NCBI GenBank assembly: GCA_963696385.1
Contig: CAVOKF010000007.1
Span: forward strand, 576,001-640,000
DNA length: 64,000 nt
Direction: 5' to 3'
Source of the DNA: an uncultured delta proteobacterium
GTDB lineage: Bacteria > Myxococcota_A > Polyangia > Polyangiales > Polyangiaceae
Made by a program: the position numbers and the translations under genes. Under the pieces are notes generated by a model. The model had not been told where the DNA came from. It did not search any database and saw only the letters and a program-made list of their open reading frames with translations. Positions 39,211-57,386 of the stretch are shown here, in pieces. The stretch's first letter is position 1, and every line of letters starts with the position of its first letter.

Positions 39211-39702
39211 TTACGACCTCTTTGCCGCCGTTTGAATCTCGACCTTCTTGGGCTGAAGGGCGGGGCTCTTTCTCACAGTGACGGTCAGCACGCCTTCCTT
39301 GAGATCCGCGACGACGTTGGCCGCGTCGACGCCGTCCGGAAGCGTGAATGTGCGGCTGAAGTCACCGAACGAGCGCTCGTACGTGTAGAACGTGTCGGTC
39401 TGCTCCTGATGCTCTGCCTCGCGCTTGCCGGCGATCGCGAGTCGGTTGCCCGTGACGGTGACTTGCAGATCGGATTCCTTGACGCCGGGCACATCCGCCT
39501 TGAACACGAAACCGTCCTTGGTCTCTTTGACCTCGAACTGGGGCGCAAAGCCTGCCGGCAAGTGCGGAAGAAGCGGAGACATCTCGATGAAGGGGTCCCA
39601 GTTCAACAGATCCCTCAGCACGCGACCGGGCTCCCACCGCACGGGAGCCGAGCTCGACGTGGGACGATTTCCGTCTTCCCTTCGAATGTTGATGTTGGGC
39701 AT
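39211..39702 (-). CDS. Hsp20/alpha-crystallin small heat shock protein
   Basis: ADVPGV, ERSFGDFSRTFTLP and GVLTV motifs; AAGGA RBS. Confidence 0.93.
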   Translation of the reverse strand: MPNINIRREDGNRPTSSSAPVRWEPGRVLRDLLNWDPFIEMSPLLPHLPAGFAPQFEVKETKDGFVFKADVPGVKESDLQVTVTGNRLAIAGKREAEHQEQTDTFYTYERSFGDFSRTFTLPDGVDAANVVADLKEGVLTVTVRKSPALQPKKVEIQTAAKRS

Positions 39703-39765
39703 GGATCGTTTCCTTTCGCCATAGACACCCGCGCTGTGCGCGACGTGTCCGTTGGTAGAAGGAAA

Positions 39766-39782
39766 TGCACGACCCGGGCCAA
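39766..39782 (-). promoter_or_regulatory. Putative sigma54 promoter for hsp20
   Basis: TTGGCCCGGGTCGTGCA (GG-N10-GC). Confidence 0.55.
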
Positions 39783-39810
39783 GCGCGGCCTTGCGCACGA
39801 GGGCGCCGTC

Positions 39811-39981
39811 TCTTCCTTCATCTGCTTCCTGCTTCTCCCTCCAGGGTCCATCCACGGATTCTTCTTTTCCACCTCGCTCCACGCCTCATCCACGGATCCT
39901 CCACGGAGTTTCTTCATATATTTTTCCCTTCTTTCCTTTCTTGTCTTCCCTGCCCTGCCCCCTGCCCGCCGATTTTCCTCC
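39811..39981 (-). other. Purine-rich (minus strand) GGA-dense intergenic element, candidate sRNA
   Basis: About 16 GGA triplets in ~170 nt; TCCACGGA x3 on the plus strand; strong strand skew. Confidence 0.3.
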
Positions 39982-40089
39982 CCGCGGAAATTGCACCGAA
40001 GAAGATGCCGTCCGCGGCAAAGGATGCGCATCGGACGCGCTGCCAGCGGCGCGATGCTCGTCACGGTCGGGGTGCCGCGCTTGTCCCGT

Positions 40090-40105
40090 GGGCACGATCC
40101 CTGCT
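40090..40105 (+). promoter_or_regulatory. Putative sigma54 promoter for ptb
   Basis: GGGCACGATCCCTGCT; ATG 15 nt after the conserved C. Confidence 0.55.
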
Positions 40106-40118
40106 CTCGGCAACGCCG

Positions 40119-41078
40119 ATGTTGCCAGCCCCTGCCCACGCCGGCGCAACGCACCGGGTGTTCGACGACCTGATTGAAGCGTGTCGTCGAGCGGCCGGCC
40201 CCGTACCCATGGCGGTGGTGGCGCCGACGACGGAGTTCGCCATGGGCGGCGTCGTCGTCGCAACCCAAGAGCACCTCATCGAGCCGATTTTCGTCGGAGA
40301 GATCGCCGCCATTCGCAGGGTCGCGCAGACGATGGGGTTTGACCTGACGCCCTACTCGATCGTGGACGCCAGCGACGACTTGGACGCGGCCCGAAAGAGC
40401 GTCGCTCTCTGCCGGTCGGGGCGATCGCATGCCCTGATGAAGGGAAGCTTGCACACCGACACGTTGATGCATGCGGTCCTCGAACACGACAGCGGCCTTC
40501 AAACGTCCAGACGCGTCAGCCACGTCTTCGTTCTCGACGCTCCGGCCTATCCGCGACCGCTCATCATCACCGACGCGGGGATCAACATTTATCCGACGCT
40601 CGAGGACAAGGTGCACATCGTTGCCAATGCGATCGACCTCGCGCACGCCATCGGAATCGAGATGCCCAACGTGGCGATCTTATCGGCCGTCGAAACCGTG
40701 AACCCGAAAATCATATCGACGATCGACGCGGCGGCGCTCTGCAAAATGGCGGACCGAAAGCAAATCACCGGCGCGGTGCTCGATGGGCCGCTTGCGTTCG
40801 ACACGGCCGTGAGCGCGCAGGCCGCGAGCGTCAAGGGGCTCACTTCCCGCGTCGCGGGGGTGGCCGATATCCTGGTCGTGCCCGACCTCGAATCCGGCAA
40901 CATGCTTGCCAAACAACTCGAGTATCTGGGGGGAGCCGAGCTCGCGGGGATCGTCGTCGGTGCGCGCGTGCCCATCGTCCTTACAAGCCGCGCCGATGCG
41001 TCGCGGGCGCGACTGGCGTCGTGCGCGGTCGCCGCAGCCTGGGTTCGCGCCGGTCAAAGCTCCCGGCTCCCGGCATAG
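40119..41078 (+). CDS. Phosphate butyryl/acetyltransferase
   Basis: LMKGSLHT, ITDAGINIYP, LDGPLAFD, PDLESGNML and LTSRAD motifs. Confidence 0.9.
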   Translation: MLPAPAHAGATHRVFDDLIEACRRAAGPVPMAVVAPTTEFAMGGVVVATQEHLIEPIFVGEIAAIRRVAQTMGFDLTPYSIVDASDDLDAARKSVALCRSGRSHALMKGSLHTDTLMHAVLEHDSGLQTSRRVSHVFVLDAPAYPRPLIITDAGINIYPTLEDKVHIVANAIDLAHAIGIEMPNVAILSAVETVNPKIISTIDAAALCKMADRKQITGAVLDGPLAFDTAVSAQAASVKGLTSRVAGVADILVVPDLESGNMLAKQLEYLGGAELAGIVVGARVPIVLTSRADASRARLASCAVAAAWVRAGQSSRLPA

Positions 41079-41082
41079 CCGA

Positions 41083-41152
<70 letters not shown>

Positions 41153-41162
41153 ACCCCCGGGG

Positions 41163-41675
41163 TCAGGATCTCGGCTTTTCTGCGGTGGACAGCTCGCGGC
41201 GGATCTCTTCCAGGGTGTCCTCGAAGAAGCGGTGCACCGCCGCTTGCGCGACACGATGGCCCACCGCCCGGTCCAGGGCAGTTCCGATCGGCCCGAACGG
41301 CGGCCGATAGTACCCCTCCATCTCGAGCTGCGTTTCCCCCGCGCTCACTTGCCACGCGGACAATTGCGCCTCCATCAAAGGAAACATCGGCGCCCCATGC
41401 GACGCTTCCCAAGCGATCTCGAGAGACAGCGACGGCGGCAGTCCCGCGATCGATTCTTCGTCACGGATTCGACGAATGTGCGTTCGAACGTCGACGGCCA
41501 CTTCGACACCGCCCACGCCGACGCGCAGACTTGCGGCGATCGAACCCGCCCGCGCCGCAGCCGAAGCCGTCGCACGCTGAAATAAGTCCAGCGGAGCACG
41601 CTGCAGCAGGGCACGGACCTGCTCGTAAGGATAGCCAACGTAGCCGTAGCAATGAACCCGTCTCCGATCATCCAT
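41163..41675 (-). CDS. Conserved hypothetical protein (SRPBCC/START-like fold suspected)
   Basis: ~170 aa; W..FP...L...TQL...G.YRPP.G..G..LD pattern; sigma54-like motif upstream. Confidence 0.65.
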   Translation of the reverse strand: MDDRRRVHCYGYVGYPYEQVRALLQRAPLDLFQRATASAAARAGSIAASLRVGVGGVEVAVDVRTHIRRIRDEESIAGLPPSLSLEIAWEASHGAPMFPLMEAQLSAWQVSAGETQLEMEGYYRPPFGPIGTALDRAVGHRVAQAAVHRFFEDTLEEIRRELSTAEKPRS

Positions 41676-41687
41676 GACGCCCACCAA

Positions 41688-41703
41688 AGCACGACGGGTG
41701 CCT
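41688..41703 (-). promoter_or_regulatory. Putative sigma54 promoter
   Basis: AGGCACCCGTCGTGCT; ATG 14 nt downstream. Confidence 0.5.
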
Positions 41704-41871
41704 GCGTCACCCCTCGGGCCCTGACCGAGCGCGAGGCCGTCGCCGCGGCCGACGGCCCGCGCAGGGATTGCGCCGCCGCGAATGTTCTTCCGACAGCTCC
41801 CGGGCCATGGTCGAAGGGCCTCGGGGGGTTGGATTGAAAGTTGCTCCGGTGTCGCGCGGAGGCATGCGACG

Positions 41872-42510
41872 ATGACGCGCGACGATGATCCCCCGACGTC
41901 GACGACTGTACGAACCCAAAACGCGGTCCTCCGAACCTTGGCACACGAACTGCGCCGCCAACGATCGGAACCCGAGACGACGGACGATCTGGAGGGGCAG
42001 GTCGTCGAGGAGTCCGCGCGATTGGCATCCGCGATGCGGGAGGCGAACCGCGCGCGGCAAAGTCGATCGCCGGGCGCTCCCGAGCTGGACAGTGCCGTCG
42101 GCGACCCGATTTCAGGTCGCCGGTGCCGGATTCTGATCGTCGATGACGACGAAGGCGCGCGGACCGCGCTCGCGGCTTGGCTCGGACGAGACTACGAGGT
42201 CGTCACGGCGGGCGACGGTATCGAGGGTCTCGAGCGAGCGGCCGAAATGGCGCCCGACATCGTCATCGCGGACGTCTGGATGCCGAGGCTCGACGGCGTT
42301 TCGATGGTGAACCGAATGAAGCGCATCGACTCGCTGCGCGATGTCCCCGTCGTCTTTCTCAGTGGCCAAACAGAGCCCGTGAGCATCGCCGCAGGCTTTT
42401 CGGCCGGGGGTCATTCGTATCTGACCAAGCCCATCGATCTCGGGTTGTTGGAGGACGAGCTGCGCTTGGCGTTGGGGTCGCAAAGCCCACGACCGGAGGG
42501 CTCTCCATGA
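41872..42510 (+). CDS. Response regulator with N-terminal helical extension
   Basis: ILIVDDD, IADVWMP and KP motifs; GGAGG RBS; TTGGATTGAAAGTTGCT upstream. Confidence 0.8.
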   Translation: MTRDDDPPTSTTVRTQNAVLRTLAHELRRQRSEPETTDDLEGQVVEESARLASAMREANRARQSRSPGAPELDSAVGDPISGRRCRILIVDDDEGARTALAAWLGRDYEVVTAGDGIEGLERAAEMAPDIVIADVWMPRLDGVSMVNRMKRIDSLRDVPVVFLSGQTEPVSIAAGFSAGGHSYLTKPIDLGLLEDELRLALGSQSPRPEGSP

Positions 42511-43067
42511 ACGACGGCAGACCCCTGCACGACGCCGGTATCCAAAAGCCCCGTTGGGCGGCGGCGCCGCCGCTGTCGGTCGAGATTTCGGATCCGGACC
42601 GGATTCGGTTCGAGCCCATACCCGACGGTGCCGCGCCGGGGCGGAGCGACGACGCCGAGCTCACGCCGGGCCCTTCGTTTCGGGTCACCCTCGTCGGTTT
42701 CGCAGGGCGACAACCGGAGCGCACCATGCCGCTATGGGTGATTCGCCAGGTTCATGTGACGACCGCCATGACCCGTGAATGGGATCGGGTCGCGGCGCAG
42801 CCGCCTTCGAGCGTCGCACGGCCTCTTGGGACTGCGGACCGCCAAGACGTCGAGGCGCGCGGCGCAAGCGAGCGCTGGCTTCGTCGCCCTTCGGAACACC
42901 CGCTCGGATCGAGCGAGGCGCTCGCTCGACGCGCGTCCGAACACCCGCCGACCGGGCATCGGGATCCCGGCGCGTCGCACGATCCACGACCCGGTCCAGA
43001 CCCCGCAGAGCCTTTCGGCTCGAGCGACCGATGGCACGACGGGCCCGGAGAACGACGCTACGGGTGA
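42507..43067 (+). CDS. Hypothetical Pro/Arg-rich protein
   Basis: GGAGGG RBS and ATGA overlap with the upstream gene; no recognisable domain. Confidence 0.35.
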   Translation: MNDGRPLHDAGIQKPRWAAAPPLSVEISDPDRIRFEPIPDGAAPGRSDDAELTPGPSFRVTLVGFAGRQPERTMPLWVIRQVHVTTAMTREWDRVAAQPPSSVARPLGTADRQDVEARGASERWLRRPSEHPLGSSEALARRASEHPPTGHRDPGASHDPRPGPDPAEPFGSSDRWHDGPGERRYG

Positions 43068-43140
43068 GTCGGTCGAAGCCACGGAACTCGATACTCTCGC
43101 TGCCCGACCGGGTTTTGTGGGCCACCGCCGAGGGCGACGG

Positions 43141-43569
43141 CTACCGGCTCTCGCTCGCGTCCGATTGGTTCTGAATGCCTTCGCAAACGCTCGACAGCTC
43201 CCGACCCAGCAGCACGAACAGGTCGTCGGCGGTCACGATCCCGACGGTCTGACCTTGGTCGTCCACGACCGGAAGCCGGCGGATGCCGTGCAGGCGCATG
43301 CGCTCGGCGGCCGTCTCGAGGCCTTCGTGAACCGAAACCGTGATGGCGCCGTACGTGACGAAGTCGCCGACGCGCGCCGAGGTCGCGTCAATTCCTTCGG
43401 CCAGCACGCGAACGACGAGGTCGCGGTCGGTGACGATGCCGGCAAGGTGCCCCGACTCCTGGACAATCAGGCACCCGACGCCTCGGTCACGCATGGTGCG
43501 CGCGGCCCCTTCGACGGTTTCTTCGGGAGACACGGTGGCCACTGGAGCCCTGAATCGATCGAGCGACAT
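43141..43569 (-). CDS. CBS-domain protein
   Basis: GIVTDRDL, IRRLPVVD and GIVTADD motifs. Confidence 0.9.
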   Translation of the reverse strand: MSLDRFRAPVATVSPEETVEGAARTMRDRGVGCLIVQESGHLAGIVTDRDLVVRVLAEGIDATSARVGDFVTYGAITVSVHEGLETAAERMRLHGIRRLPVVDDQGQTVGIVTADDLFVLLGRELSSVCEGIQNQSDASESR

Positions 43570-43582
43570 GGGGGGCGCACAC

Positions 43583-43598
43583 TGCAGCCGACATGCCC
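43583..43598 (-). promoter_or_regulatory. Putative sigma54 promoter
   Basis: GGGCATGTCGGCTGCA; ATG 15 nt downstream. Confidence 0.5.
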
Positions 43599-43763
43599 GC
43601 GGCCTGGGTCGCGCAACCGGCCGCTGGGTTTGCGCACTGGCGCAGCACGCCACCCCCGGCCCGGGCCGATGCGGGCTCTGCCGGGGCGCGCATGAATTGC
43701 ACCCTGACCGACCGCGTGACTGGTGAAAAGAGCACGGCGCGGGGTTTGCCCGTTGCACGCGGG

Positions 43764-44816
43764 ATGAGAACCGTCGTCTGCTCGGCCTCTGCTCTGCTTC
43801 TGGCAACCGCCTGTGCCTCGGAGAGGCCGGTGGACGCCGCTGCCATCGGGCCGATCGCACCGCAAGCGGAGGCTAGGGCGCCGGGTCATGCGCTCGTGAC
43901 GCAGGCGACATCCTGCTGGATGGGAGGACTCTGGAGCGATGCGCTCGGCGAGACCGACGAGGCCCGCACGGCCGGAATCGACCGCCGCTGCAATGCGCTG
44001 CTGCACGACATCGATCTCGCGGCAGCGGAACGCGGGCGTGCGCTTGCCGACCGGGTGCCGCCGCCGGCGCCCGAGGAAGCGTATTACCCGCTTCGAGCGG
44101 TGGAGCCGCACATCGTCGACGCCCTGGCGCACAAGGTCGAAGAGAGAGCGGCGCGCGACGCCGAGGAGGCCCCCCACGCGCGCGACCTCGTCGTCCTGCT
44201 TCGCGCGATAGCGGCCGCGGCGCGAGAGACCGTGCAGGCACGACGCGCCGCCGATTTCGTCAAAGACGACATCCGGGCGCAGTCCGGCGCGGCCGAGAAG
44301 ACCGCAGACGAAGCGGCGGCCGCCACCAAACTGGGACGCGGTGAGGGCCTCGACTCGCTCTGGCGTGCCGACGCGGGAGTGTACGCCCACGAGGCCCGGA
44401 GCCTTGCCATCCTGACCGCGCTCGATCGAATGCAGATTGCCCGGGGGCTGCCCAAGGCCCTCAAGATCGAAACAGTGCGCACGGGCTTTGCCGACCTGTT
44501 CGGAGTTTCCGCGCCGGCCGCTTCGAACGACGCCGCCAACGCCCCGCCGGAAGGCACGTGGCTCGCCTATTTGACCGAGGTTGCCGGAGCCGCCGGTCAT
44601 CCGATCCCGACCGACGCGCGCCATCCGCAAAACCGCGAGCCGCTCGCGTGGACGGGCGTCTTGGAAGGCATCGCCGATAGGCTTCGCGCCGATTCGGTCG
44701 TATTCCCTACAGGCACCCCCCTCGGCGATGTCGAGCGCGCCATCGCGATCCGCCTCGACGCGGAGTACGCGGACGAGCGAGCCGCCTACGCGGCCCATGC
44801 GGCGGCGGATCGCTGA
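43764..44816 (+). CDS. Hypothetical helical lipoprotein
   Basis: LATAC lipobox; CGGCGCGGGGTTTGCC motif 15 nt upstream. Confidence 0.65.
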   Translation: MRTVVCSASALLLATACASERPVDAAAIGPIAPQAEARAPGHALVTQATSCWMGGLWSDALGETDEARTAGIDRRCNALLHDIDLAAAERGRALADRVPPPAPEEAYYPLRAVEPHIVDALAHKVEERAARDAEEAPHARDLVVLLRAIAAAARETVQARRAADFVKDDIRAQSGAAEKTADEAAAATKLGRGEGLDSLWRADAGVYAHEARSLAILTALDRMQIARGLPKALKIETVRTGFADLFGVSAPAASNDAANAPPEGTWLAYLTEVAGAAGHPIPTDARHPQNREPLAWTGVLEGIADRLRADSVVFPTGTPLGDVERAIAIRLDAEYADERAAYAAHAAADR

Positions 44817-44909
44817 TGCGGGCACCCACGGACGAGCTGAGAAGCTCTTCTTTAGCCACGACGCGCGAGCTCTTCCGTGGAGAACGCCGGAAGCACGCCC
44901 GCATCGACA

Positions 44910-44925
44910 CGGCACGAGGCTCGCT
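44910..44925 (+). promoter_or_regulatory. Putative sigma54 promoter
   Basis: CGGCACGAGGCTCGCT upstream of the glycine-zipper gene. Confidence 0.5.
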
Positions 44926-44970
44926 TGCACAATGGGGAAGGGTTCCTCAAAACCTTTGGAGGTCGCCGTC

Positions 44971-45357
44971 ATGAGTTCAAAGCGCAAGGACAAGAGCACC
45001 GGAAGCCAAACGGACAAGCACCGCATGGCGCACGAGGCGGAAGGCGCGGCATCCGGAGCGGTCGCCGGAGGCGTGGTTGGAGCGGCCGCGGGCCCGCCCG
45101 GAATGGTGGCGGGCGCCATCATCGGCGGGGTGGCAGGTGCGATTGCCGGCGCCGTGCTCGATCGCGAATCGTCGAGGCAGGCCTCTCACACGCGCGAGCT
45201 CGACGCTCAGATCGGGGTGAGCGAAGGCGACCTTGGAGCGCCCAATCTCGAGCACCCGACCGCCGAGCGTGGCGCCTACTCGAACGCCTCGACCGGGGTG
45301 GAGTCGTCGTCCGCCGAACAGCCGGCGGAGGGGCCGATGCAGACGCCGGAGAGCTAG
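44971..45357 (+). CDS. Small glycine-zipper protein (paralog of 38708-39064)
   Basis: GGAGG RBS; GxxxG repeats; LDRESSRQASHTRELDAQIGVSEGDLGA. Confidence 0.75.
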   Translation: MSSKRKDKSTGSQTDKHRMAHEAEGAASGAVAGGVVGAAAGPPGMVAGAIIGGVAGAIAGAVLDRESSRQASHTRELDAQIGVSEGDLGAPNLEHPTAERGAYSNASTGVESSSAEQPAEGPMQTPES

Positions 45358-45677
45358 AGAGGGCTCGAGAGACGGCGAGGGGGGCGCTGGTCGGAAAGGT
45401 GGGCGGCATGCTGGCCGGCAGGCATGTACGAGTCGTAGAGCCCTCGCGCTTCGTACAGGGGCTTGTGCATACCCTAAGCCTAAGCGCCGCCGCGGGCGAC
45501 GAGGAGATCGTTGTACAGCGCACCCGCTTGGGCCGCGGTGGAGCGTGACGCCCGAGTTCGAGGGGCAGGATCCGTAAGACGCAGAATCTGCAGCTCAGCG
45601 TAATGTTGGCCAGCGGACCGATCCGTGCACCAATCATCCTCCCGCGCCTGCTGTCGAGCCTGTAAGCTTCCCGCCGG

Positions 45678-47240
45678 ATGTTGCCCGACGATCTGCTGCA
45701 CCCCGAAGCATGGCCGCAGCCGGCCCCACCGAGTGTCAAGCTGATTGAGACTCATGTGTCGTGGGTGTTTGTGGGTGGCCGCCAGGTCATCAAGATCAAA
45801 AAGCCCGTGGCGCTGGGGTTCGTGGACTTTCGGTCGGTGGAACGCCGACGGGTGGCTTGCGAGGACGAGGTCCGGCTCAACACCCGCCTGGCGCCGGGCG
45901 TCTATCTGGGGGTGCTTCCCATCGTCCGAGACCCGGGCGGGCAGATCTCCATCGCGGGAGACGGCGAGATCGTCGATTGGGCCGTGCACATGCGGCGTCT
46001 CGATGACGATACGCGCGCGGACGTATTGCTTGGACGAGGGGCACTCACCCACGACCACATCAACTCCGTGGCACGCGCCATCGCCGATCTCCACCGGCAG
46101 TCGGCGGTGAGCGAAACCACCGCGGCGCGTTGGGCGTCGGTATCGGCGATCGAAAGGAACGTGCTGGAAAACTTCGGCCAAACCGCCAAGCTGTCGTCCG
46201 CGTACATGGAGGATCGGGCCGCCGATGAGATCGAGCAGGCGCAGGTGAAGTTCGTGGCCGAGCACGAGTCGCTGATCTCGGCGCGCGTTCGGGCCGGCCG
46301 GATTCGCGACGGACACGGCGATCTTCGGCTCGAACACATTTATTTCGACAGCGAAGGTCTGCGGATCATCGACTGCGTCGAGTTCGACGAGCGGTACCGC
46401 GTCGAGGACGTGTGCTCGGATGTGGCCTTTCTATCGATGGACCTCGCGGGTCAGAACCGGGTCGATTTGGCCGAGTGGCTGCTCGCCCGCTACGCGCGCC
46501 TGTCGGGCGATTACGATCTGTACGCCCTCGTGGACTTCTACGAGGGATACCGCGCATGGGTACGCGCAAAGGTCTCGGCCTTGCTCGCGGCGGACGCCGG
46601 AGTCGACGAGGGCACTCGCATGCGCGCCGCGCGCGAGGCTCGCCGTCATTTTCTTCTCGCGCTCGCCTGCACTCGGCCGCCCCTGGTCGCACCGCAGCTC
46701 GTTTGCGTGTGCGGCGTGATCGGTTCGGGCAAGAGCAGCATCGCCGACGCGCTGTCAAGAGAGCTGTCGTGGCCGGTGGTCGACAGCGATCGAACCCGAA
46801 AGCAGCTGCTCGGCGTGGAAGAAACGCGGCCGCTGACCGATCCCTTGTGGAGCGGCGCCTACAGCCCAGACGTCACGGCGCAGGTCTACACAGAGACGTT
46901 CCGCCGGGCCTCCGTCGTGCTGGCGTCGAAACGCCCGGTCATCGTCGACGCGTCGTTTCGGTCGAGCGCGACCCGGCGCAGCGCGCGCGAGCTCGCCCAT
47001 GCCCACGGCGTTCCGTTCGTGCTGCTCGAGTGCCAGGCTCCTGCCGAAGTCTGTCGCGCCCGGCTGAGCCGTCGACCCCCGGGTGCGAGCGACGGGCGCC
47101 CGGCCATGTTCGAACCCTTCGCCGCGTCGTTCGAGCCGATCCGGGAGCTCGCTCCCGCCGAACACGTGGTCGTGGACACGACCGAGACCTTGGAACACAC
47201 GCTCGACATGCTGCGCAGTCGACTGCGCGGCGCTTCGTGA
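45678..47240 (+). CDS. Aminoglycoside-phosphotransferase-like + AAA_33 kinase fusion (Rv2004c-like)
   Basis: ETHVSWV, KIKKPV, GHGDLRLEHI, IDCVEF and GVIGSGKSS motifs. Confidence 0.88.
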   Translation: MLPDDLLHPEAWPQPAPPSVKLIETHVSWVFVGGRQVIKIKKPVALGFVDFRSVERRRVACEDEVRLNTRLAPGVYLGVLPIVRDPGGQISIAGDGEIVDWAVHMRRLDDDTRADVLLGRGALTHDHINSVARAIADLHRQSAVSETTAARWASVSAIERNVLENFGQTAKLSSAYMEDRAADEIEQAQVKFVAEHESLISARVRAGRIRDGHGDLRLEHIYFDSEGLRIIDCVEFDERYRVEDVCSDVAFLSMDLAGQNRVDLAEWLLARYARLSGDYDLYALVDFYEGYRAWVRAKVSALLAADAGVDEGTRMRAAREARRHFLLALACTRPPLVAPQLVCVCGVIGSGKSSIADALSRELSWPVVDSDRTRKQLLGVEETRPLTDPLWSGAYSPDVTAQVYTETFRRASVVLASKRPVIVDASFRSSATRRSARELAHAHGVPFVLLECQAPAEVCRARLSRRPPGASDGRPAMFEPFAASFEPIRELAPAEHVVVDTTETLEHTLDMLRSRLRGAS

Positions 47241-47256
47241 CCGGGCTCGATCGGTC

Positions 47257-48400
47257 CTACGCCGATCGCGGGCCGTCGACCCAGTGGACCACGAAGACGG
47301 CGCCAGGGGCCGCGTCCTCGACCCCAATCGAATCCGCCGTGAGCCTCGACCGCGAGCTTGCAGAACGCGAGCCCCAGCCCGTGACCGGTCCGAGCCGTCC
47401 GCCCATCGTCGGCCTCGAGCCGTACGAACGGGTCGAAGATGCTCTCGCGCATCTTGGCAGGAACGCCGACTCCCGCATCCGTCACTCGAATCTCGGTCGC
47501 GCCGGCTTGCTGCCCGCTCGTTACACGGACGACGGAGCCCCTCGGCGCGTGGCGAATGGCGTTCTCGATGAGGTTGGCGAGCGTGCGGCGGAGCAGATCC
47601 TCATCGGCGCGAACGCGACCGATGCCGAGCTCCAGGTCGATCCTCACGTGCCGCTCGGCGGCCGCGCCCTCGAGCTCCCCGCTCACGCGCTCCAAAAGGG
47701 CCGCGAGATCGATGTCCGATCTCTTTGCGACCAGCTTGCCCTCGTCGGCTTTGCTGATGTCGAGCAGGTTGAGAATCATCCGGTTGAGCTGGCGCGCCGA
47801 GCTGCGGATTTGCGCAGCGGACTGCCGGGCCCCGTCGCGCAGGGTGGGGTCTCGCAGCAGGACCTGGGCATGCAAATCCATCGCGTTAACGTGATTTTTG
47901 AGGTCATGGACGACGAAAGCCATGAGCCGCTCTTTTTGCAGCTGCAGCCGCAGCAGGTCGTCGCGCTGGTGCTTGATGAGATCGAAGTGCTCGCGCAGTT
48001 CGGCCCCCATTCGGCGCAGTTTCAAGACCGTCTGCACACGTGCGATGAGCTCCGCCGGTCGAACGGGCTTGGTCAGGAAATCGTCCCCACCCGCCCGCAA
48101 CGCGCGATCGAAGGTGTCCACGTCGCGCAATGCCGTAAGAAAGAGCACGGGGATCGTCGCGCCCTCGGGACGCGCGCGGATCTGCTCGCACACCGCGAAG
48201 CCGTCGACCTCGGGCATTCGCACGTCCAACACGACACAATCGGGGCGCTCTCGATCGAACGCCGCGATCCCCTCGGCGCCTCCGGTCGCGGTCGCGACCC
48301 GATACCCCTCGTCCTCGAGCGTGTGCCGAGCCAGCAGGCGATTCGCCTCGTTGTCGTCGACGACCAGGATCAGCGCCGGTGGATTCGGGGCAGTCGGCAT
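47257..48400 (-). CDS. REC-HisKA-HATPase hybrid kinase; +1 frameshift at ~47331
   Basis: REC, VHDLKN, NAIRH and GLGLAFC motifs; removing one base gives HGGSIGVEDAAPGAVF, stop 47257, and removes a 355-bp overlap. Confidence 0.88.
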
Positions 48401-48600: not shown

Positions 48601-49338
48601 TTAGGTTCGATGATTGGGACAGCACGCGTGCCCGGTCGGCCACCCGGCGTCCGCCCAGGCTTGGCCCACGTGCACGATCTGCAGCAGACCCAAGGCGACC
48701 ATGGCCATACCCGCGGCCACGCGCACCATCCGGAGGCGAGCCATGCGTGCGATGGCCGCGCCGGCGGAGCCCATGGCCATGAGCATGGGCAACGTGCCCA
48801 GTCCAAAGGCCGCCATCGTCGCTGCCCCCCCGAGCGCCGAGCCGCTGGTCACGGCGGCCGCCAACGCCGCGTACACGAGCCCGCACGGCATCCATCCCCA
48901 CACGAGGCCGAGCGCCCACGCCGACAGAGGGTGCCGAATCGGCACGAGGCGCTGGGCAGCCGGGGCGATGCCGCGCCAAATCGGCGCCGCCGCCCGTTCC
49001 ACCCAGCGAAGGGCGCGAGACACCCCGGCGATGTACAAGCCGACGGCCAACATCATCAGAGCGGCGGCGAGACGCAGGGTCAATTCGGCGTGCCAGAGCA
49101 ACCCGAGAGCCGCCAAAGACGAACCGAGGCCCCCGGCCGCCGCGCCCGCCGCGGCATAGGATGAAATGCGGCCCGCGTTGTAGGTCAAGAGGTAAGGTAG
49201 CTGAGCGGCCAGTCGCCGCCGCCGCGCCAAGGGCAGCGCGGAGCAGGTCATCGCGACGACGCCGCCGCACATCACGACGCAATGCGTGCTGCCGAGCAGG
49301 CCCATGACCAGAGCCGAGGCGAGGAGCACCGCGCTCAT
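48601..49338 (-). CDS. DsbD_2/TauE-family membrane protein (cbb3 assembly associated)
   Basis: HCVVMCGG, YNAGRISSY, PCGLVY and FGLGTLP motifs. Confidence 0.88.
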   Translation of the reverse strand: MSAVLLASALVMGLLGSTHCVVMCGGVVAMTCSALPLARRRRLAAQLPYLLTYNAGRISSYAAAGAAAGGLGSSLAALGLLWHAELTLRLAAALMMLAVGLYIAGVSRALRWVERAAAPIWRGIAPAAQRLVPIRHPLSAWALGLVWGWMPCGLVYAALAAAVTSGSALGGAATMAAFGLGTLPMLMAMGSAGAAIARMARLRMVRVAAGMAMVALGLLQIVHVGQAWADAGWPTGHACCPNHRT

Positions 49339-50729
49339 CGCGACGGCCCGAGGAACATCCCGCTCACGACGACGGGACGACCGGACCCGTCGTCTCGCGA
49401 GATGCGAATGCGAAACGGAAGGTCCGATCGAAATCGGTCGCGCGAAACGGACAGGAAAACCGGGATTCGCACGTTGGACAGCGACGAAACAAGAGGCGCG
49501 GGAATCGAGACGAGCGCGCGCATCGCGTCATCGGCTTGGACGTCGATGCGGTAGCGTTGCTCGATCGCGCGCTTGTTGACCAGGTGCAGCTGCACCGCTT
49601 CGCGCACCTCGCCGCCTTCGACGACGAACGGCTCACCGGGCAAGCGCAAGAGCGTGGCTTCGAAGTCGTTGCGGCCGCGAACCGCCACGAGCGCGACGAC
49701 CGCACCCAACACGAGCAGCGCCGCATAAAAGACCAGGCGCGGGCGCACGAACCTTCGGCGACGGCCGGCGAGTCCCTCTTCCGAGTCGTAGCGGATGAGA
49801 CCCCGCGGGCGTCCGAGCCTATCCATGACGTCGTCGCACGCGTCGATGCACGCCGTGCACGCCACGCACTCGAGCTGAGTGCCATTTCGAATGTCGATGC
49901 CGGTCGGGCACACCACGACGCAGCGCTTGCAGTCGACGCAATCGCCGGCGCCCGCGGTCGCCTTCTTGCCGCGCGGCTCGCCCCGCCGTCTGTCGTAGCC
50001 GATGACCCACGAGTGCTTGTCGAGCAGCGCCGACTGCAATCGCCCGTACGGACACAGAACGACGCAAAGCTGCTCTCGAAACCACGCGAAGTTCAAGTAG
50101 AAGACCGTGCTCATGGCCAGCACCCACCCGAAGGCTTCGGGGTGCGCGGAGGGCCTCTGGCGCACCATACGGAGGGTCGCCGGAAGCGACGCAAAGTAGC
50201 TCAGAAAGATGTGAGCCACGATCACCGCGCATAGCGCGTAGAGCGCGTGGGTCGCCGTCTTTCGCGCGACCTTACCCGCGTTCCACGGCCCGCGGTTGCG
50301 GCGAATTCGCTTCTCGCGCGGTCCCTCGACCCAGCGCTCCACACGCCGAAAGATCCCCTCGAGAAACACGGTCTGGGGGCATGCCCATCCACACCAGACT
50401 CGGCCGGCCACGGCCGTGGCCACCACGAGAGCGAACCCAATGCCTGTCAGCAAGAAAAACAGCAGCCACGTGTCCTGCGCATTGAACGTCGTGCCGAATA
50501 GATAGAGAGCGCGCGCATCGACATCGACGAACAGGGCCGGATGCCCGCCGACCCGAAGCCAGGGCAGCACCGCCCACAACGCGATGAGCGCGGCGTACAC
50601 CAGGCTCCGGGCGCGCTGAAATCGTCCGTGCACGTCGGCCGGTTGAATGGCATGACGCCGGCCGTCCGAAGGCAGCGAGTCGGAGGGCCAATCGCGAGCG
50701 TTGGCGAGCGGCAGAGGCGTCCGGCTCAT
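49335..50729 (-). CDS. ccoG: cbb3 oxidase accessory protein / copper reductase
   Basis: GRVWCGWACPQTVF, CPYGRLQ, CVDCKRCVVVCPTGIDIR and CVACTACIDAC motifs. Confidence 0.95.
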   Translation of the reverse strand: MSRTPLPLANARDWPSDSLPSDGRRHAIQPADVHGRFQRARSLVYAALIALWAVLPWLRVGGHPALFVDVDARALYLFGTTFNAQDTWLLFFLLTGIGFALVVATAVAGRVWCGWACPQTVFLEGIFRRVERWVEGPREKRIRRNRGPWNAGKVARKTATHALYALCAVIVAHIFLSYFASLPATLRMVRQRPSAHPEAFGWVLAMSTVFYLNFAWFREQLCVVLCPYGRLQSALLDKHSWVIGYDRRRGEPRGKKATAGAGDCVDCKRCVVVCPTGIDIRNGTQLECVACTACIDACDDVMDRLGRPRGLIRYDSEEGLAGRRRRFVRPRLVFYAALLVLGAVVALVAVRGRNDFEATLLRLPGEPFVVEGGEVREAVQLHLVNKRAIEQRYRIDVQADDAMRALVSIPAPLVSSLSNVRIPVFLSVSRDRFRSDLPFRIRISRDDGSGRPVVVSGMFLGPSR

Positions 50730-51295
50730 GGGACCGCAAGCTCGCCTTGCGGCGCCTTGCCGCCCGGCGCGTTCGTGTCCTTGATGGACAACACGAACGC
50801 GACGACGGATTCCACTCGATCGTCGCCGAGCTGCGGGCCCCAAGCAGGCATGCCCTTGTTCGGAACGCCCCCGGACACCGTCCGGAACAGGTCCATGGGG
50901 CGGCTGCCGTGCAGCCAATAGGCGTCGGTCAAGTTGGGGCCGATGTTGCCGCCCCCATCGGCCCGATGGCAGGGAGCGCACGTGCTCGTGAAAGTCTCCC
51001 TCCCCTTGGCCAGAGTGGCCGGATCTTTGGACAGCGTGACGAGAAGCGCGTCATCAATCGTGCCGCGCGATCGGGCGCGCTCGGCGTCGGCCGCCCGCTC
51101 GGCCGCGATCTCCTTCGCATAGGCCTGCAGAGGCGTTTCGATCGCGTCCAACCGTCGGCCAAACCAGTAGACGAGTGCGAATACCACGGCGCCGTACAGC
51201 GTGAGCTGCCACCAGAGCGGCAGCTTGTTGTCGTGTTCGACGATGTCGTCGTAGACGTGAACCCGCTCGCGAGCGGAGGAGTCAGTGTCGCTCAC
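50726..51295 (-). CDS. ccoP: cbb3 oxidase subunit III (short, mono-heme)
   Basis: YDDIVEHDNKLPLWW; single CAPCH; GPNLTD; MPAW. Confidence 0.88.
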   Translation of the reverse strand: MSDTDSSARERVHVYDDIVEHDNKLPLWWQLTLYGAVVFALVYWFGRRLDAIETPLQAYAKEIAAERAADAERARSRGTIDDALLVTLSKDPATLAKGRETFTSTCAPCHRADGGGNIGPNLTDAYWLHGSRPMDLFRTVSGGVPNKGMPAWGPQLGDDRVESVVAFVLSIKDTNAPGGKAPQGELAVP

Positions 51296-51458
51296 GGCGA
51301 ACCTCGCCTTCGAGGGGCATCCGTGCCGCATCCGCCATTTCATCGGCGGACCTCGTCAGCACGCGCACGGCGGCGACGACCCAGATGCCGAGAAAACCAA
51401 ACATGGCGAACAGCGGCAAGAGGAGCAATGGAGAATGCTGCAGGAGCTCGTTGTGCAT
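51282..51458 (-). CDS. ccoQ: cbb3 oxidase subunit IV-like
   Basis: 58 aa, one TM helix, AARMPLE tail, between ccoNO and ccoP. Confidence 0.7.
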   Translation of the reverse strand: MHNELLQHSPLLLLPLFAMFGFLGIWVVAAVRVLTRSADEMADAARMPLEGEVRRERH

Positions 51459-51480
51459 GAGAGTCCTTTGGGGTCGGTTC

Positions 51481-53844
51481 TTACTTTGCGACGGACACGG
51501 CGGCGCCCGGCCCTCGCAACGGTTGGGGGTGGACGCCGAGCCGCTGCAAGTACGCGATGAGCGCGACGATCTCGGACTTCGGATCGACGTTGGCGGCGCC
51601 GTCGTCCTGCAGGTTCTTTGCAATGTCCCGACCTTGCGCCTCGGCATCGGCACGCGCGTCCGCGAGATCCTGGGCGCCGTAGGGAACGCCGACCGATCGC
51701 ATCGCGCGCATCTTGGTCTCGGTCCGCGCCAGATCGACTTCATCGGTCGCGAGCACGGGGAAGGGCGGCATGTTGGACCCGGGCGAGATCGCGCGCGGGT
51801 CCACCAAGTGCCGATAGTGCCAGAGGCTCGGATACTTGCCGCCCTCGCGTGCCAGATCGGGTCCGGTGCGCTTGGATCCCCACTGGAACGGGTGGTCGTA
51901 GGTGGACTCGGCCAACGTCGAGGGATCGCCGTAGCGGCGGGTCTCGAACGCGAAGGGCCGAATCATCTGCGAGTGGCACGTGTAGCACCCCTCTCGCACG
52001 TACACGTCCCGGCCTTCGAGCTCGAGAGCCCGATAGGGCTTGGTCTCGGCCGCGACGGCCGCGTCGCTCGGAGTGGCGAGCAAGGACGGCACGAGCTCTG
52101 CGATCCCGCCGGCGAGCACGGCGATCACCGCAAAGGACGTGAAGTAGAGCGCCCGCCCTTCCAGGATCCGGTGCCACTGCGGCTTGTTGCGGTCCACGGC
52201 CAGCCGGATCGCGATCACCCCGAGGATGGCCGTCACGACCGCAACCGTTGCCAACAGGATGCTGGCCTCGTTGTTCACGACGGCCATCGACCCCGCGAGA
52301 ACCGCCACGATCGTGATGAGAATCACCGGCTTGCCGAAAAGAACCTCTTCCCAAGGGGCCTCGGGGACCCGGGAGCGGGCCACGGTCACCGTGACCTCGC
52401 CGTCGACGGCGTGGCCCGCGAGAGCGGTGCGGGCCAGATTGTAGGCCATCGCGATCATGCCGATGAGGTACATCGATCCGCCGGTCAGCCGCATCCAGTA
52501 CATCGGGCGAATCGCGTCGATCGTCTCGACGAAGTTGGGGTACGTGAGCGCACCTTGCGCGTCGGTCGCACGCCACATCAGACCCTGGGTGATTCCGCTC
52601 ACCCACATCGACACGACGTACAGCAGAATGCCGAACGTGCCGATCCAAAAGTGCGCGTCCGCGAGCCTTCTCGACCAGAGCTCGCGGCCGTACAGGCGCG
52701 GCACCATCCAGTAGAACATCCCGGCCGCCATGAAGCCGTTCCACCCAAGCGCGCCGCTGTGCACGTGACCGATGATCCAATCGGTGTAATGGGCCAGACC
52801 GTTCACCGCCTTGATCGACAGGAGAGGTCCCTCGAAGGTCGCCATGCCGTAGAAGGTCACCGCCGCCGCCATGAACTTGAGAACGGGGTCTGTGCGGACC
52901 TTGTCCCAGGCTCCCCGGAGCGTCAAAAGGCCGTTGAGCATTCCGCCCCAGCTCGGCGCCCAAAGCATCACGCTGAACACCATTCCGAGCGTCTGGGCCC
53001 AGTCGGGCAGCGCCGTGTTGAGAAGGTGATGGGGCCCGGCCCAGATGTACACGAAGATGAGCGACCAAAAATGAATGACGCTCAACCGATAGGAGTACAC
53101 GGGCCGGTTGGCCGCCTTCGGCAGGAAGTAGTACATGATACCGAGCACGGGCGTCGTGAGGAAAAACGCGACCGCGTTGTGCCCGTACCACCACTGGACC
53201 AGAGCGTCCTGGGCCCCACCGTAAATGGAATAGCTCTTGAAACCGGAAACGGGGACCGACAGCGAATTGACGACGTGCAAGACGGCGACGGTCACGATGG
53301 TGGCGATGTAAAACCAGATCGCCACGTACAAATGCTTCTCGGCGCGGCGCGCCAGGGTCCAGAAGAACTGGATGGCAAACACGATCCACACCACGGCTAT
53401 CGCGATGTCGATCGGCCACTCGAGCTCCGCGTACTCCTTGCCCTGCGTCAGCCCGAGCGGCAGGGTGATCGCCGCGGCGACGATGATGAGCTGCCACCCC
53501 CAGAAGTGAACCTTGGCCAACAGATCGCTCGGGAGCCTGGCTTTGACCAGCCGCTGGGTCGAGTAGTAGATGCCCGCGAAGATCATGTTGCCGACGAAGG
53601 CGAAGATCACCGCGTTCGTATGCAGCGGTCTCAAGCGCCCGTACGTGAGGTAGGGGGGCAGATTGGCCTGCCAGAACGCGAGCTGGAGTGCGATGGTCGC
53701 TCCGACCAGCATTCCGACGAGGCCCCAGATCACCGAGGCGGCGACGAACCAGCGGGCGATCGAGTCGTTGTAGACGATGCGCCGCGTTTCGAACTCGACC
53801 GGATGGCCGGGAGGCGTGGATTCAACCGTCACCGGTACGCTCAT
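51481..53844 (-). CDS. ccoN: Fused cbb3 oxidase subunits I/II (CcoNO)
   Basis: [20 protein letters not shown] and GHVH motifs, then [13 protein letters not shown] and [10 protein letters not shown]. Confidence 0.96.
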
Positions 53845-53984
53845 TTCTTCTCGTCCTCCAGGGGCAACAACGCGAGTCGGTCGGCATGATCGAAGTCGCG
53901 CTGGCGGCAGGTGAACGCGAAGAGCAGCACCGAACCAACGACGAGCATCAGGCTGACGAACACTTGTAGGGTCACGACTTCCAC
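53841..53984 (-). CDS. ccoS: cbb3 oxidase maturation protein
   Basis: 47 aa TM helix plus [17 protein letters not shown]; overlaps both neighbours. Confidence 0.75.
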
Positions 53985-56353
53985 AGCGAACTCCTTGGCG
54001 AGAGCGCAACCAGCGTGGCTGCAATCGTCGTCAGTGAGCTCACGGGCATGAGCACCGCGCATGCCAGCGGCGGCATACGCCCCGCGAGCGCAAGACCGAC
54101 GGTTAGAATGTTGTAAGCGAGGGCGATCGCGAGATCGACGCGCACGACTTGCGCCAGAGCGCGAGAAGTGCGTAAAGCCAGTCGGATCGGCGCGAGTCCT
54201 GGCGTGACGAAGAAAAAGTCGGCTCGCGCCGGTACGAAGGGGCGGTCGACTGAGGGCGTACCCGACACGTACGCCCGATCGATGGCGAGCGCGTCGTTGA
54301 CGCCATCGCCCACGAACAGGGTGTCGTCCCAATCCACGCGCCCGAGAAAGCGGGCCTTGTCCTCGGGGTTCTGATTGCCGATGCACCGGCGCTCGGCCAT
54401 GTGGCTTGCGCGGCCGGCGGCATCGACGCGGGCCTGAGTGTCTCCGCTCAGGAGCCACACCTCGTAGCCATCGCGAACCAGGGCATCCACCTCACCGGCG
54501 GCATCCGGACGCAGGCGCTCGGTGGTGGCAAAGCGAGCCAGAAGATCACCATCGACGCCGAAGGCGACGTCGAAGGCAACGTCGGCGCACGCCCGAGGGG
54601 CCACCCACGAGAGCCGCCCCAGCCGAAAGCGCCGGCTCGAGGAGACGAGCTCCACTCCCAGGCCGGGCGATTCGACCACCCGCGCGCCGGCGTCGAGGGT
54701 CGCGCCGTGGGCGTCGAGGACTTCGCGGATCGCTTGACTCTTCGGATGTGCGCTTCGACTCACGAGATCGACCAGGGCCTGGCGCGACACCGAATCGAGC
54801 GCCAGCGCGGCCTCGGGGTTGGCAAGCTCCAAGGCGCCGGTCGTGAGGGTCCCGGTCTTGTCGAAGACAATGCGTCGGACGGATCGTGCCCGATCGAGAA
54901 ACCCCGCCCGCCGGACAAACAGGCCGCGCCGGCGCAAGCCTGCCTGAACGATTTCGTACGCGAGCGGAGTCGCGATTCCGAACGCGCAGGGGCATGTCAC
55001 GATGAGGATCGACGTCGTGACGCTCAGGGCACGCGCGATGTCTCGCGTGGCGGCGTACCAGGCTCCGAAGCCGACGATCGCGATGCCCAGCACGCCGAGC
55101 ACGTAGAACCGTGCGAGCCGCTGCCACCAGGCCGACGTCCGCCCGCCGTCGCCCCCTCGCCGTTCGGGCTGACGAAGCAAGACGCGGAGCGGCGACGACG
55201 CGAACGCGGTCCGTGCGATCAGCGTGCAGGCTTCGGTCCCGGCGGCAAAGGCCCCGGCCGGCACGGTTTGCCCCGCAACGTAGGTGCGGGGCATGCTCTC
55301 GCCGTTGATCCAGTCGAGTGAGAACCAGGCGCTCGGGGCCTCCAACCGGGCGTCCACGGCCAGCAAGTCACCCGGTGCGAGCAGCAGCGTGTCGTCTGCG
55401 GCGATCTCCGCACATCGCGTGAGGCGAACCCGCCCATCCACGATGCGCCGTGCGAGTAGGCTATCGGTGCCGTCGCTTGCGAGCAGCCAGGCTCGGTTGC
55501 GCTCGACGACCCGTTCCTGAAGCCACCGCCCGACGAGCATGAGGGCGATGAACACGTTCAACGTGTCGAAGTACGCCCCCGCCGATCGCCGTGTCACGTA
55601 CGAATGGATGGATCCGGCGAAGGCGAGCGCGATGCCGAGCGCGATAGGCAAATCGAGGTGAATCAGACGCTGACGCAGCGCCTGGAGAGCGGAGCGGAAG
55701 AATACGGATCCCCCCACCGCGACCGCGACGGCGCTCAGCGCCACGTTGAGGGTGGTAAACAGCGAAAAGAGGGGCCCCTGGTCGAGCCCGGCATAGATCG
55801 CGATGCCGAAAATCATCGAGTTCATCGCGACGGCCGCGCAGATGCCCATGCGCCACACCAGATCCTGCGACGGCGGCGCCCGCTTCGACGGCGGCCCGAA
55901 GAGGTAGCCGAACCGTTCGACGCTCAAGACGAACGCGCGCAGGTCGAAATCCGCACGAACGATGAGATCGACGCGCCCGAGCGAGGGGTTGACCAAAACG
56001 CTCTCGTGACCCTCTTGGCGGGCAAACATTTGCTCGACGAGCCACACGCATCCGACGCAGTGGAGGCCTTGCACGTCGAGCGTGACACGCGCATGGCCCC
56101 GAGCGGTCCGCACGTCGTCCTCAACGGGCTCGAGCCACTTCGTGTCCCGCCGGTCGGCGCGCGTCGGCGGAGGCGCCGCCCCGCGTGCGCCGCCCAAGGC
56201 ATAGTAGCGATCCAGGCGCTCGTGGCGCAGGAGGGCGTGCACGGCCTCGCAGCCGGGGCAGCAAAAGTCACCCCGAGCTTGGGCGTCCAAGGACAATCCG
56301 CAATGAAGGCACGCTCCGGGGCCGCACGGGATGGAGTCGGCGGCGAGGACCAT
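53972..56353 (-). CDS. ccoI: Copper P1B-type ATPase for cbb3 assembly
   Basis: CLHC/FCCPGC, HCVGC, CPC, DKTGT, GDGVND and YN motifs. Confidence 0.9.
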
Positions 56354-56419
56354 GGTGGGGATTCGCTGACGGGGGGCATCGTCCTGCAGGGTCCAGATGC
56401 CCGGTCAGAACACCCTGGC

Positions 56420-56917
56420 TCAGCCCGCGCCCTGGGCAGGCGACGTTGCGCCGGGCAAGGCCTGGTCAGTTTGCGGCCCGTGGACGGTCAGCACCGGGCA
56501 GCCGGCCATTCTCACGACGTGTTCGGCAACGCTTCCGAGCAAGGCCCGGGGCAGACCGTGGCGGCCTTGGGTGCCCATGACGATGAGATCCGCTCCCATG
56601 CTTTCCGCGACCTCCCGGATCTCGTTGTATGGCGTGCCGCGCCGAAGCATTCCGCCGATCTCGACGTCGACCGCCCGGGCCCGCGCCACGACGCCATCGA
56701 GCGCGTTTTGCGCCGCACGTGCGACCGCCGATTCGAATTCAAAAGTTGCCACCATCGAGTCGGGAAAACCGTAGGACGGGCATTCGTAGACGTGCAGGAC
56801 CGTGATGGTTGCGCCCAACCTCCCGGCCAAGGCGATCGCGTAACCGAGGGCACATTCGGCCGGCTCGCCGAAGTCGTGCGGCACCAGGATCCGGCGAATC
56901 TCGGGAGTGAAGGTCAT
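56420..56917 (-). CDS. Universal stress protein
   Basis: RILVPHDF, DLIVMGTQG, LGSVAEHVV and CPVLTV motifs. Confidence 0.93.
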   Translation of the reverse strand: MTFTPEIRRILVPHDFGEPAECALGYAIALAGRLGATITVLHVYECPSYGFPDSMVATFEFESAVARAAQNALDGVVARARAVDVEIGGMLRRGTPYNEIREVAESMGADLIVMGTQGRHGLPRALLGSVAEHVVRMAGCPVLTVHGPQTDQALPGATSPAQGAG

Positions 56918-57357
56918 GCCCGCCGGGCCGATGCAACGGCCCGGCCATCGCCACTCGGCCCGAGCAGAACCACGAGCGCGCGCAACGCATCGACGGATGT
57001 AAAAATGCCCGCGACATGGCCGTGGTCCACCACGGCGACGCACCCGTACTTGTGCTGCGCCATCTCGGCCGCCACCTCCGCCAAGGGCACGTCGGGGGCA
57101 ACGGCGTACACCTCGGTCGACATGGCCTCTTCGACCCTGACCGTCGATGGATCGACGTCGCGCAGCGTTTCGACGAAGAGCACGTCGCGCTGCGAGAGCA
57201 CTCCGACGATTCGTCCGCCATCGAGCACCGGAAGATGCCGGACGTCGTGGGCACGCATCCGGTCGAGCGCGGTCGACAACGACTGGCTGCGGCCGATCGA
57301 GTGCGGCGAGGGGGTCATGAAATCGCGTATGGGGCAATGCAGTTCATGCCTGGTCAT
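56914..57357 (-). CDS. CBS-domain protein
   Basis: VRHLPVLD, GVLSQRD and GIFTSVDAL motifs. Confidence 0.9.
   Translation of the reverse strand: MTRHELHCPIRDFMTPSPHSIGRSQSLSTALDRMRAHDVRHLPVLDGGRIVGVLSQRDVLFVETLRDVDPSTVRVEEAMSTEVYAVAPDVPLAEVAAEMAQHKYGCVAVVDHGHVAGIFTSVDALRALVVLLGPSGDGRAVASARRA
56932..56947 (-). promoter_or_regulatory. Putative internal sigma54 promoter for usp
   Basis: TGGCCGGGCCGTTGCA; ATG 16 nt downstream. Confidence 0.55.
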
Positions 57358-57370
57358 GGCGATCGACACC

Positions 57371-57386
57371 AGCAAGGATGTGGCCA
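57371..57386 (-). promoter_or_regulatory. Putative sigma54 promoter for CBS-usp
   Basis: TGGCCACATCCTTGCT, near consensus; ATG 15 nt downstream. Confidence 0.65.

Follow-up and report, generated by a model that had tools for sequence, protein, structure and literature searches.

The closest described counterpart of the system considered here is the NmpRSTU oxygen-utilization regulon of Myxococcus xanthus, in which oxygen-use genes are activated by the NtrC-like protein NmpR. Its binding sites are GCGCA-N5-TGCGC dyads that lie upstream of sigma54 sites, and a tandem-CBS target requires its sigma54 site (PMC11841059). The dyads of M. xanthus occur as two per promoter, mostly 14-15 nt apart (5 nt at pilR), and the available parts of that paper hold no discussion of leaderless targets (PMC11841059). 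We analyzed a 64-kb window (C7:576001-640000) of the genome of an uncultured polyangial myxobacterium (6.9 Mb, 66% GC), which contains a gene island of similar make-up, with sigma54-type motifs, NmpR-type dyads and tandem-CBS genes. Here d denotes the distance from the conserved C of the motif to the A of the ATG. In a Myxococcus genome the CBS target has its ATG at d 48, whereas most island targets have theirs at d 14-16, and the island dyads, in contrast to those of M. xanthus, are often common to divergent promoters.

Leaderless mRNAs, defined here by a leader of at most 5 nt, are known with promoters of the sigma70 type from Actinomycetota and Deinococcota, where, as in the island, a promoter element lies a fixed short distance before the AUG and no Shine-Dalgarno (SD) sequence is present (PMC3160421, PMC6028130). 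As far as the sections available to us go, the only promoter element modeled there is a Pribnow box some 10 nt upstream, a limit stated in PMC3160421, whereas the element here is a -24/-12 sigma54 motif whose 4-nt spread implies many leaders of 1-4 nt. Leaderless mRNAs of Alphaproteobacteria (Sinorhizobium, PMC3616915; Bradyrhizobium, PMC4842269; Caulobacter, 10.1101/2020.05.06.081141) share the strong AUG preference and the lack of an SD. They differ in that the Bradyrhizobium promoter motif is an extended -10 element, TGnTA (PMC4842269), and short leaders in Caulobacter are rare and poorly translated (10.1101/2020.05.06.081141). Leaderless and sigma54 starts are given as separate lists in the parts of PMC3616915 and PMC5243855 at hand. 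Within the myxobacteria, pexR of M. xanthus has been proposed to be leaderless under the same definition, but as a single gene with a sigmaA-type promoter; the accessible text does not describe the sigma54 promoters of katB and ahpC as leaderless (PMC12754779). In the literature we found no description of sigma54-dependent leaderless mRNAs as a class, although supplementary start-site tables for Sinorhizobium, Bradyrhizobium and Leptospira may hold single cases; a first-pass annotation of the window, which proposed such a class, likewise knew of none. Sigma54 promoters, the NmpR regulon and leaderless initiation are known separately, and the pairing of this promoter class with this translation mode appears to be new.

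We consider it likely that ten motifs in the island serve as sigma54 promoters under the control of an NmpR-like activator and form a low-oxygen regulon, and that at six of them RNA starts at the ATG or no more than about 4 bases away, yielding leaderless, SD-free mRNAs. Nine GG-N10-GC motifs had been listed in the first-pass annotation; all were recovered at the same positions and in the same orientation, and the gene names it gave were borne out by Pfam. The six close-spaced genes, none of which shows an SD-like word, are predicted to be leaderless. On the forward strand they are ptb (40119..41078; phosphate acetyl/butyryl transferase, PF01515), with its motif at 40090..40105 (C at 40104, d 15), and a predicted lipoprotein gene (43764..44816; lipobox-like LATAC read from the sequence, no Pfam match), with its motif at 43735..43750 (C at 43749, d 15). 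On the reverse strand are a conserved hypothetical gene of 170 residues (41163..41675, hereafter the 41675 gene; motif 41688..41703, C at 41689, d 14), the tandem-CBS gene CBS (43569) (43141..43569, PF00571; motif 43583..43598, C at 43584, d 15), the usp gene (56420..56917, PF00582; motif 56932..56947, C at 56933, d 16) and a second tandem-CBS gene, CBS (57357) (56914..57357, PF00571), whose motif at 57371..57386 (C at 57372, d 15) serves the CBS-usp unit. Three further genes have longer leaders, each with an SD-like word: hsp20 (39211..39702, reverse strand, PF00011; motif 39766..39781, C at 39767, d 65), a receiver-domain gene (41872..42510, forward, PF00072; motif 41830..41845, C at 41844, d 28, with a second, out-of-frame ATG at d 20) and a Gly-zipper gene (44971..45357, forward, PF13441/PF13488 slightly below cut-offs; motif 44910..44925, C at 44924, d 47). 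A tenth motif, absent from the earlier list, lies on the reverse strand at 54051..54066, within the 3' end of ccoI and before ccoS-ccoN, 68 nt ahead of the GTG of a 47-residue ccoS-like open reading frame (ORF) and the cbb3 oxidase genes. The ORF has no Pfam match; we take it to be ccoS from its position.

The GG-N10-GC pattern is common in this DNA, as the first-pass annotation had cautioned, with 137,422 scored sites in the genome. Each site was graded by a simple consensus count over 8 positions, and in-frame ATG or GTG codons near the starts of 5153 genes, called with a self-trained codon model, were tallied at each distance from the motif; the expected count at d 13-16 was derived from d 41-80, and the window was left out of the main enrichment figures. 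Among sites scoring at least 6, 31 gene-start ATGs fell at d 13-16 against 4.0 expected (Poisson P ~1e-17); at a score of at least 5, there were 58 against 11.8, about 45 excess cases of the layout outside the window. For sites scoring at least 5, the distances 13, 14, 15 and 16 held 13, 18, 17 and 16 ATGs, followed by 6 at d 17 and about 3-4 elsewhere. The strong excess at a fixed spacing predicted by the first-pass annotation is therefore present and sharp, but slightly wider than the 14-16 it gave. Sites scoring 2 or less gave no peak, and raw ATGs counted without gene calls carried the signal in diluted form. That the island motifs are chance matches in GC-rich DNA, chosen after the fact, is an idea fed by the abundance of the pattern and by the roughly 12 of the 58 cases scoring at least 5 outside the window that chance would supply; the P value on sequence outside the window, together with the spacer and codon controls, refutes it for the genome-wide signal and leaves it hardly credible as an explanation. 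The motif-ATG spacing is not due to chance genome-wide; single sites may be false.

The peak depends on the architecture of the motif and on the codon. Spacers of 8, 9 and 12 nt gave no peak and 11 nt a weak one (14 versus 7.2), and GTG starts at the 10-nt spacer showed no excess (3 versus 4.1 expected), in keeping with a preference for AUG. None of the 33 starts at d 13-16 was preceded by an SD word, whereas 17 of the 34 at d 22-40 were (Fisher P 1e-6). The anti-SD of the 16S rRNA is intact, and an SD word was found at 188 of 882 sampled gene starts genome-wide. The genome encodes rpoN, with a match over the cut-off, and 45 of its 52 matches to the sigma54-activator family PF00158 reach at least 98 bits. 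A sigma70-family sigma or a transcription factor might in principle read the motif instead of sigma54, since the link to sigma54 is drawn from sequence and all nine motifs of the first-pass annotation have modest scores of 5 or 6 of 8. We think this very unlikely: the peak requires the exact 10-nt spacer, and a matrix of 65 sites fits yTGGCACGrnnnTTGCw, the consensus printed in PMC12754779, although this agreement arises partly by construction. The sites are also accompanied by dyads of the type bound by a sigma54 activator, and in M. xanthus the target promoter of that activator needed its sigma54 site (PMC11841059).

The layout is lineage-wide and no special device of the island. We counted the pattern GGCAYG-N5-TGCW followed by an ATG at d 13-16 and, as the control, at the shifted distance of d 17-20 in the same 251 genomes; a reversed-pattern control was not counted as evidence because it tests motif presence only. 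These counts ignore gene calls, and related genomes are not independent. The source genome itself gave 21 versus 7. Its family gave 457 versus 126 (higher at d 13-16 in 17 of 18 genomes, median ratio 3.5), the remainder of the order 300 versus 151 (21 of 23, median ratio 1.6), the remainder of the class 231 versus 67 (6 of 7, median ratio 3.4) and the remainder of the phylum 930 versus 542. Over the whole class, 44 of the 48 genomes sampled thus had more cases at d 13-16 than at d 17-20. In a complete Myxococcus genome the excess was smaller, with 10 of 26 cases at d 13-16, of which three belong to a single repeat, and five Pseudomonadota genomes had none (21 of 97 at d 13-16 versus 24 expected).

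Two genomes with top counts, G139 and G254, carry repeated cassettes. In G139 (L105-L110) many dispersed, near-identical copies of a MarR-family gene each have a G-rich sigma54 motif 14 nt before the ATG. G254, a metagenome-assembled genome of the Polyangiaceae (L111-L115), contains dozens of copies of two cassettes in which a sigma54 motif is followed by an ATG at 13-14 nt. That ATG opens a frame of only four codons, and these cassettes may represent a mobile element or a small RNA present in repeated copies.

At the level of individual genes, a motif scoring at least 5 was found at 13 of 29 loci of CBS homologues. Six of these have their ATG at d 13-17, five of them without an SD word, and five have it at d 25-30, all with an SD; of the remaining two, one lies at d 53 and one at d 9, and none falls at d 18-24. 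The CBS homologues thus alternate between no leader and the shortest leader able to hold an SD, as predicted if the promoter fixes the 5' end.

The preferred reading requires the nearby ATG to be the true start codon. When 14 proteins of its family were aligned, Met1 of the 41675 protein coincided with the conserved start. The start of CBS (57357) lies 9 codons ahead of a conserved anchor, mostly 4-9 in homologues, and the next ATG lies beyond the anchor. The Usp domain begins at residue 7, and the first residues of the lipoprotein, as read from its sequence, are needed for its signal peptide. The assignments are less sure for ptb and CBS (43569), which have in-frame GTG codons at d 54 and d 42, respectively. 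These codons, together with ptb RNA contigs that begin 46 or 51 nt past the conserved C (C+46/51), are what one would expect if transcription were sigma54-driven but translation began further downstream, after a leader of ordinary type. Such a later start would cost the lipoprotein its signal peptide and CBS (57357) conserved residues, would disregard the family start of the 41675 protein and the position of the Usp domain, and would leave an unused ATG enriched at one spacing for no reason; we regard it as quite improbable.

Sigma54 polymerase starts RNA about 12 nt past the conserved C. On this basis the first-pass annotation proposed leaders of 2-4 nt; very short leaders are indeed likely, but they are not fixed at 2-4 nt and probably range over 0-4 nt. 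Four metatranscriptome runs cover the island, as contigs only, and contig ends were taken from 32 of 572 pieces. Among the contigs listed, those of hsp20 end at 39744/39745 (C+22/23), inside the leader, that of CBS (43569) ends at 43563 (C+21), inside the coding sequence, and that of the lipoprotein gene begins at 43771 (C+22), again within coding sequence. For the receiver gene, one contig has its first base at 41857 (C+13), and a Gly-zipper contig begins at C+38. Some of the listed contigs end in adapter. Given the usual loss of about ten 5' bases, these ends fit starts near C+12-14, if weakly, and the similar stops at C+21 to C+23 for hsp20, CBS (43569) and the lipoprotein gene, whether in leader or coding sequence, lend weak support to the proposed starts.

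Mapped starts from M. xanthus provide a calibration. We counted by hand parts 1-7 of 11 of the Cappable-seq table in PMC8844925 (supplement 2, sheet S2B) and placed the starts on the complete genome of a member of the genus Myxococcus (G282), in which 12 of 43 genes lack an ORF of exactly matching length; four of these, which have leaders of 0-3 nt, were assigned to ORFs of similar length, and MXAN_2924 was not placed. In the parts counted, the development-induced starts of actA (-56) and dmxB (-213) fall at C+15 and C+16 of strong sigma54 motifs, beyond the textbook 12 nt, with flanking distances on G282 equal to the published ones. PMC8844925 does not mention a sigma54 promoter for dmxB. Together with the receiver contig at C+13, these starts make leaders of 0-4 nt likely: RNA would start 12-16 nt past the C, and many leaders are likely to be exactly 0 nt. 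A fixed start at C+12 was considered and rejected, as no purine excess is seen there. Among the 16 sites with d 16, 13 have a purine at C+13, but with P 0.02 in one of many cells examined this is a hint only.

Very short leaders are not confined to sigma54 promoters. In the portion of the M. xanthus table that was counted, the strongest start lies 0-5 nt before the start codon in 19 of 55 genes with a mapped start (8 at 0 nt, 11 at 1-5 nt), although the word "leaderless" does not occur in PMC8844925. When these 0-5 nt starts were placed on sequence, 11 of 18 had a sigmaA-type TANNNT 6-8 nt upstream. The source genome shows a corresponding TANNNT peak 6-12 nt before operon-leading ATGs (42, 53, 42, 58, 39, 25 and 28 versus about 12; n = 2630), which indicates many genes with putative sigmaA-type leaderless or short-leader transcripts. 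Myxobacteria demonstrably make 0-5 nt leaders and presumably translate them, and because such leaders are common in M. xanthus, the main objection to the sigma54-leaderless idea of the first-pass annotation is removed. We infer that the layout is the sigma54 arm of a general myxobacterial leaderless habit and not an island device.

The dyads point to the nature of the regulon. NmpR-type dyads flank most island promoters, and three in the island are perfect. Two overlapping imperfect dyads, with 2 and 1 mismatches, lie between the hsp20 and ptb promoters (40015..40040, starts 40015 and 40026). A perfect dyad lies between the divergent motifs of the 41675 and receiver genes (41759..41773), and one with 1 mismatch between those of CBS (43569) and the lipoprotein gene (43688..43702). 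A perfect and an imperfect dyad lie upstream of the tenth motif, within the ccoI coding sequence (54140..54173, starts 54140 and 54159), and another such pair 34 nt upstream of the CBS-usp motif (57420..57453, starts 57420 and 57439). A core-perfect dyad with at most 1 mismatch is found within about 150 bp of five of the nine sites of the first-pass annotation and of the tenth, and the ptb site has an imperfect one; none occurs within about 150 bp of the hsp20, Gly-zipper or usp motifs. Of 5150 gene starts genome-wide, 37 have a dyad 20-150 bp upstream, compared with 11 of 64 sites at d 13-16 and 11 of 179 at d 22-80. C6:437717-439105 encodes the closest match (56.5% identical) to the activator found at the nmp locus of Myxococcus; it adjoins a kinase similar to one of that locus and sits between a usp gene (d 16) and a CBS gene (d 15). 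This region, C6:435175-439967, with usp, kinase, NmpR-like activator and CBS gene and a perfect dyad at 435904, is a likely nmp locus.

Gene content, dyads and the activator match suggest that what the first-pass annotation called a stress island is not one of generic stress and is likely to be a low-oxygen, NmpR-like regulon. The tenth motif and the two dyads within ccoI appear placed to drive the cbb3 oxidase genes. In the mechanism we propose, low oxygen would activate the NmpR-like protein, which would bind the GCGCA-N5-TGCGC dyads located 35-110 bp upstream, where a single dyad often lies between promoters of opposite direction, and would open sigma54-RNA polymerase at ten promoters. RNA would then start 12-16 nt past the C. 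At six promoters the mRNAs would begin at or just before the AUG and be read by leaderless (70S, 5'-AUG) initiation, while the other four would give SD-led mRNAs.

Several observations weigh against this proposal. The RNA contigs map no start at any island promoter and are unable to prove one, and the gene starts used throughout come from a simple custom gene caller. The usp motif sits in the coding tail of CBS (57357) and the usp ATG overlaps the CBS stop codon, an arrangement missed by the first-pass annotation, and an RNA contig spans the CBS-usp junction. No experimental example of sigma54 combined with a leaderless mRNA was found, and 0 of the 18 M. xanthus 0-5 nt starts placed from the counted parts of PMC8844925 had a sigma54 motif scoring at least 5. 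Leaderless initiation in Caulobacter drops by about half with every base added to the leader (10.1101/2020.05.06.081141, as far as available), which fits poorly with 2-4 nt leaders and makes the many 1-5 nt leaders themselves hard to account for. The island dyads are single or paired 4 nt apart, unlike the 14-15 nt of M. xanthus, and for this reason we do not claim membership in an NmpR regulon of the M. xanthus type; the second-best match to NmpR is nearly as close (55.1%). At 16 of the 29 CBS homologue loci there is no strong motif or no located ATG, matches to ptb were found in only 2 of 40 family genomes, neither with a motif, and the top counts of G139 and G254 were rejected as independent evidence since repeated cassettes inflate them.

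Promoter-bound sigma54 can act as a repressor in other bacteria. The sites could accordingly be real but repressive or secondary, with the genes mostly transcribed from upstream promoters and carrying ordinary SD-less leaders; the unmapped starts, the contig bridging CBS and usp, and the scarcity of SD words in this genome would all suit such an arrangement. A blocking site, in contrast, needs no 4-nt window to the ATG, no choice of ATG over GTG and no total lack of an SD. Five of the six genes moreover belong to a divergent pair or lead their unit and have activator dyads a short way upstream, and the homologues switch between the two leader classes as if the motif sets the 5' end. We judge such a blocking or secondary role unlikely and retain the view that the six genes are probably transcribed from their own sigma54 promoters into leaderless mRNAs. 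The usp gene is probably also read through from CBS, and its paralogue on C6 has a near-identical motif at the same d 16 without such an arrangement.

The remainder of the island contains an AAA_33 protein and, amid the genes discussed above, a cbb3 oxidase cluster with Pfam matches to COX1-FixO, FixP, FixG, DsbD_2 and a P-type ATPase. A tandem short repeat of CCCGAC-like units (41072-41159) separates ptb from the 41675 gene, which converge. Unnamed protein clusters close to the 41675 protein occur in Actinomycetota and Acidobacteriota, and a weak lead (0.91) points to SRPBCC/polyketide-cyclase proteins; a paralogue of the 41675 gene at C7:1227294 likewise has a sigma54 motif and a dyad. At 38500-39827, hsp20 and a Gly-zipper gene (38708-39004) lie under RNA contigs in all four runs, and RNA cover breaks near a hairpin at about 39165-39197 in two of the four. 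An Rfam scan of the window gave no match.

In content the island resembles the DosR dormancy regulon of Mycobacterium tuberculosis, with Hsp20, Usp, two tandem-CBS proteins and an AAA_33 kinase-like protein. The DosR regulon differs in its regulator and sigma class, and the island adds the cbb3 oxidase cluster.

In surveys and gene finders, the sigma70 -10 box is the only promoter element through which leaderless genes of bacteria are modeled, and a lineage-wide sigma54 class would add a second route. The M. xanthus table, in the parts counted, has 0-5 nt leaders in about a third of genes, with more at 1-5 nt (11) than at 0 nt (8), though the model organisms studied translate leaders of this kind poorly. 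Tentatively, and as a possibility we rate well below the proposal for the island itself, Polyangia-type myxobacteria may run a large part of their sigma54 regulons, those for low oxygen above all, on leaderless mRNAs. Their ribosomes would read 1-5 nt leaders efficiently, unlike those of Caulobacter or E. coli, and the sigma54 start choice, 12-16 nt past the C, would be drawn to the A of the ATG, so that one activator would set both transcription start and translation mode under energy stress. If the lineage-wide class is true, it would correct the assigned start codons of dozens of genes in each genome and provide a precise ruler for sigma54 start-site selection.

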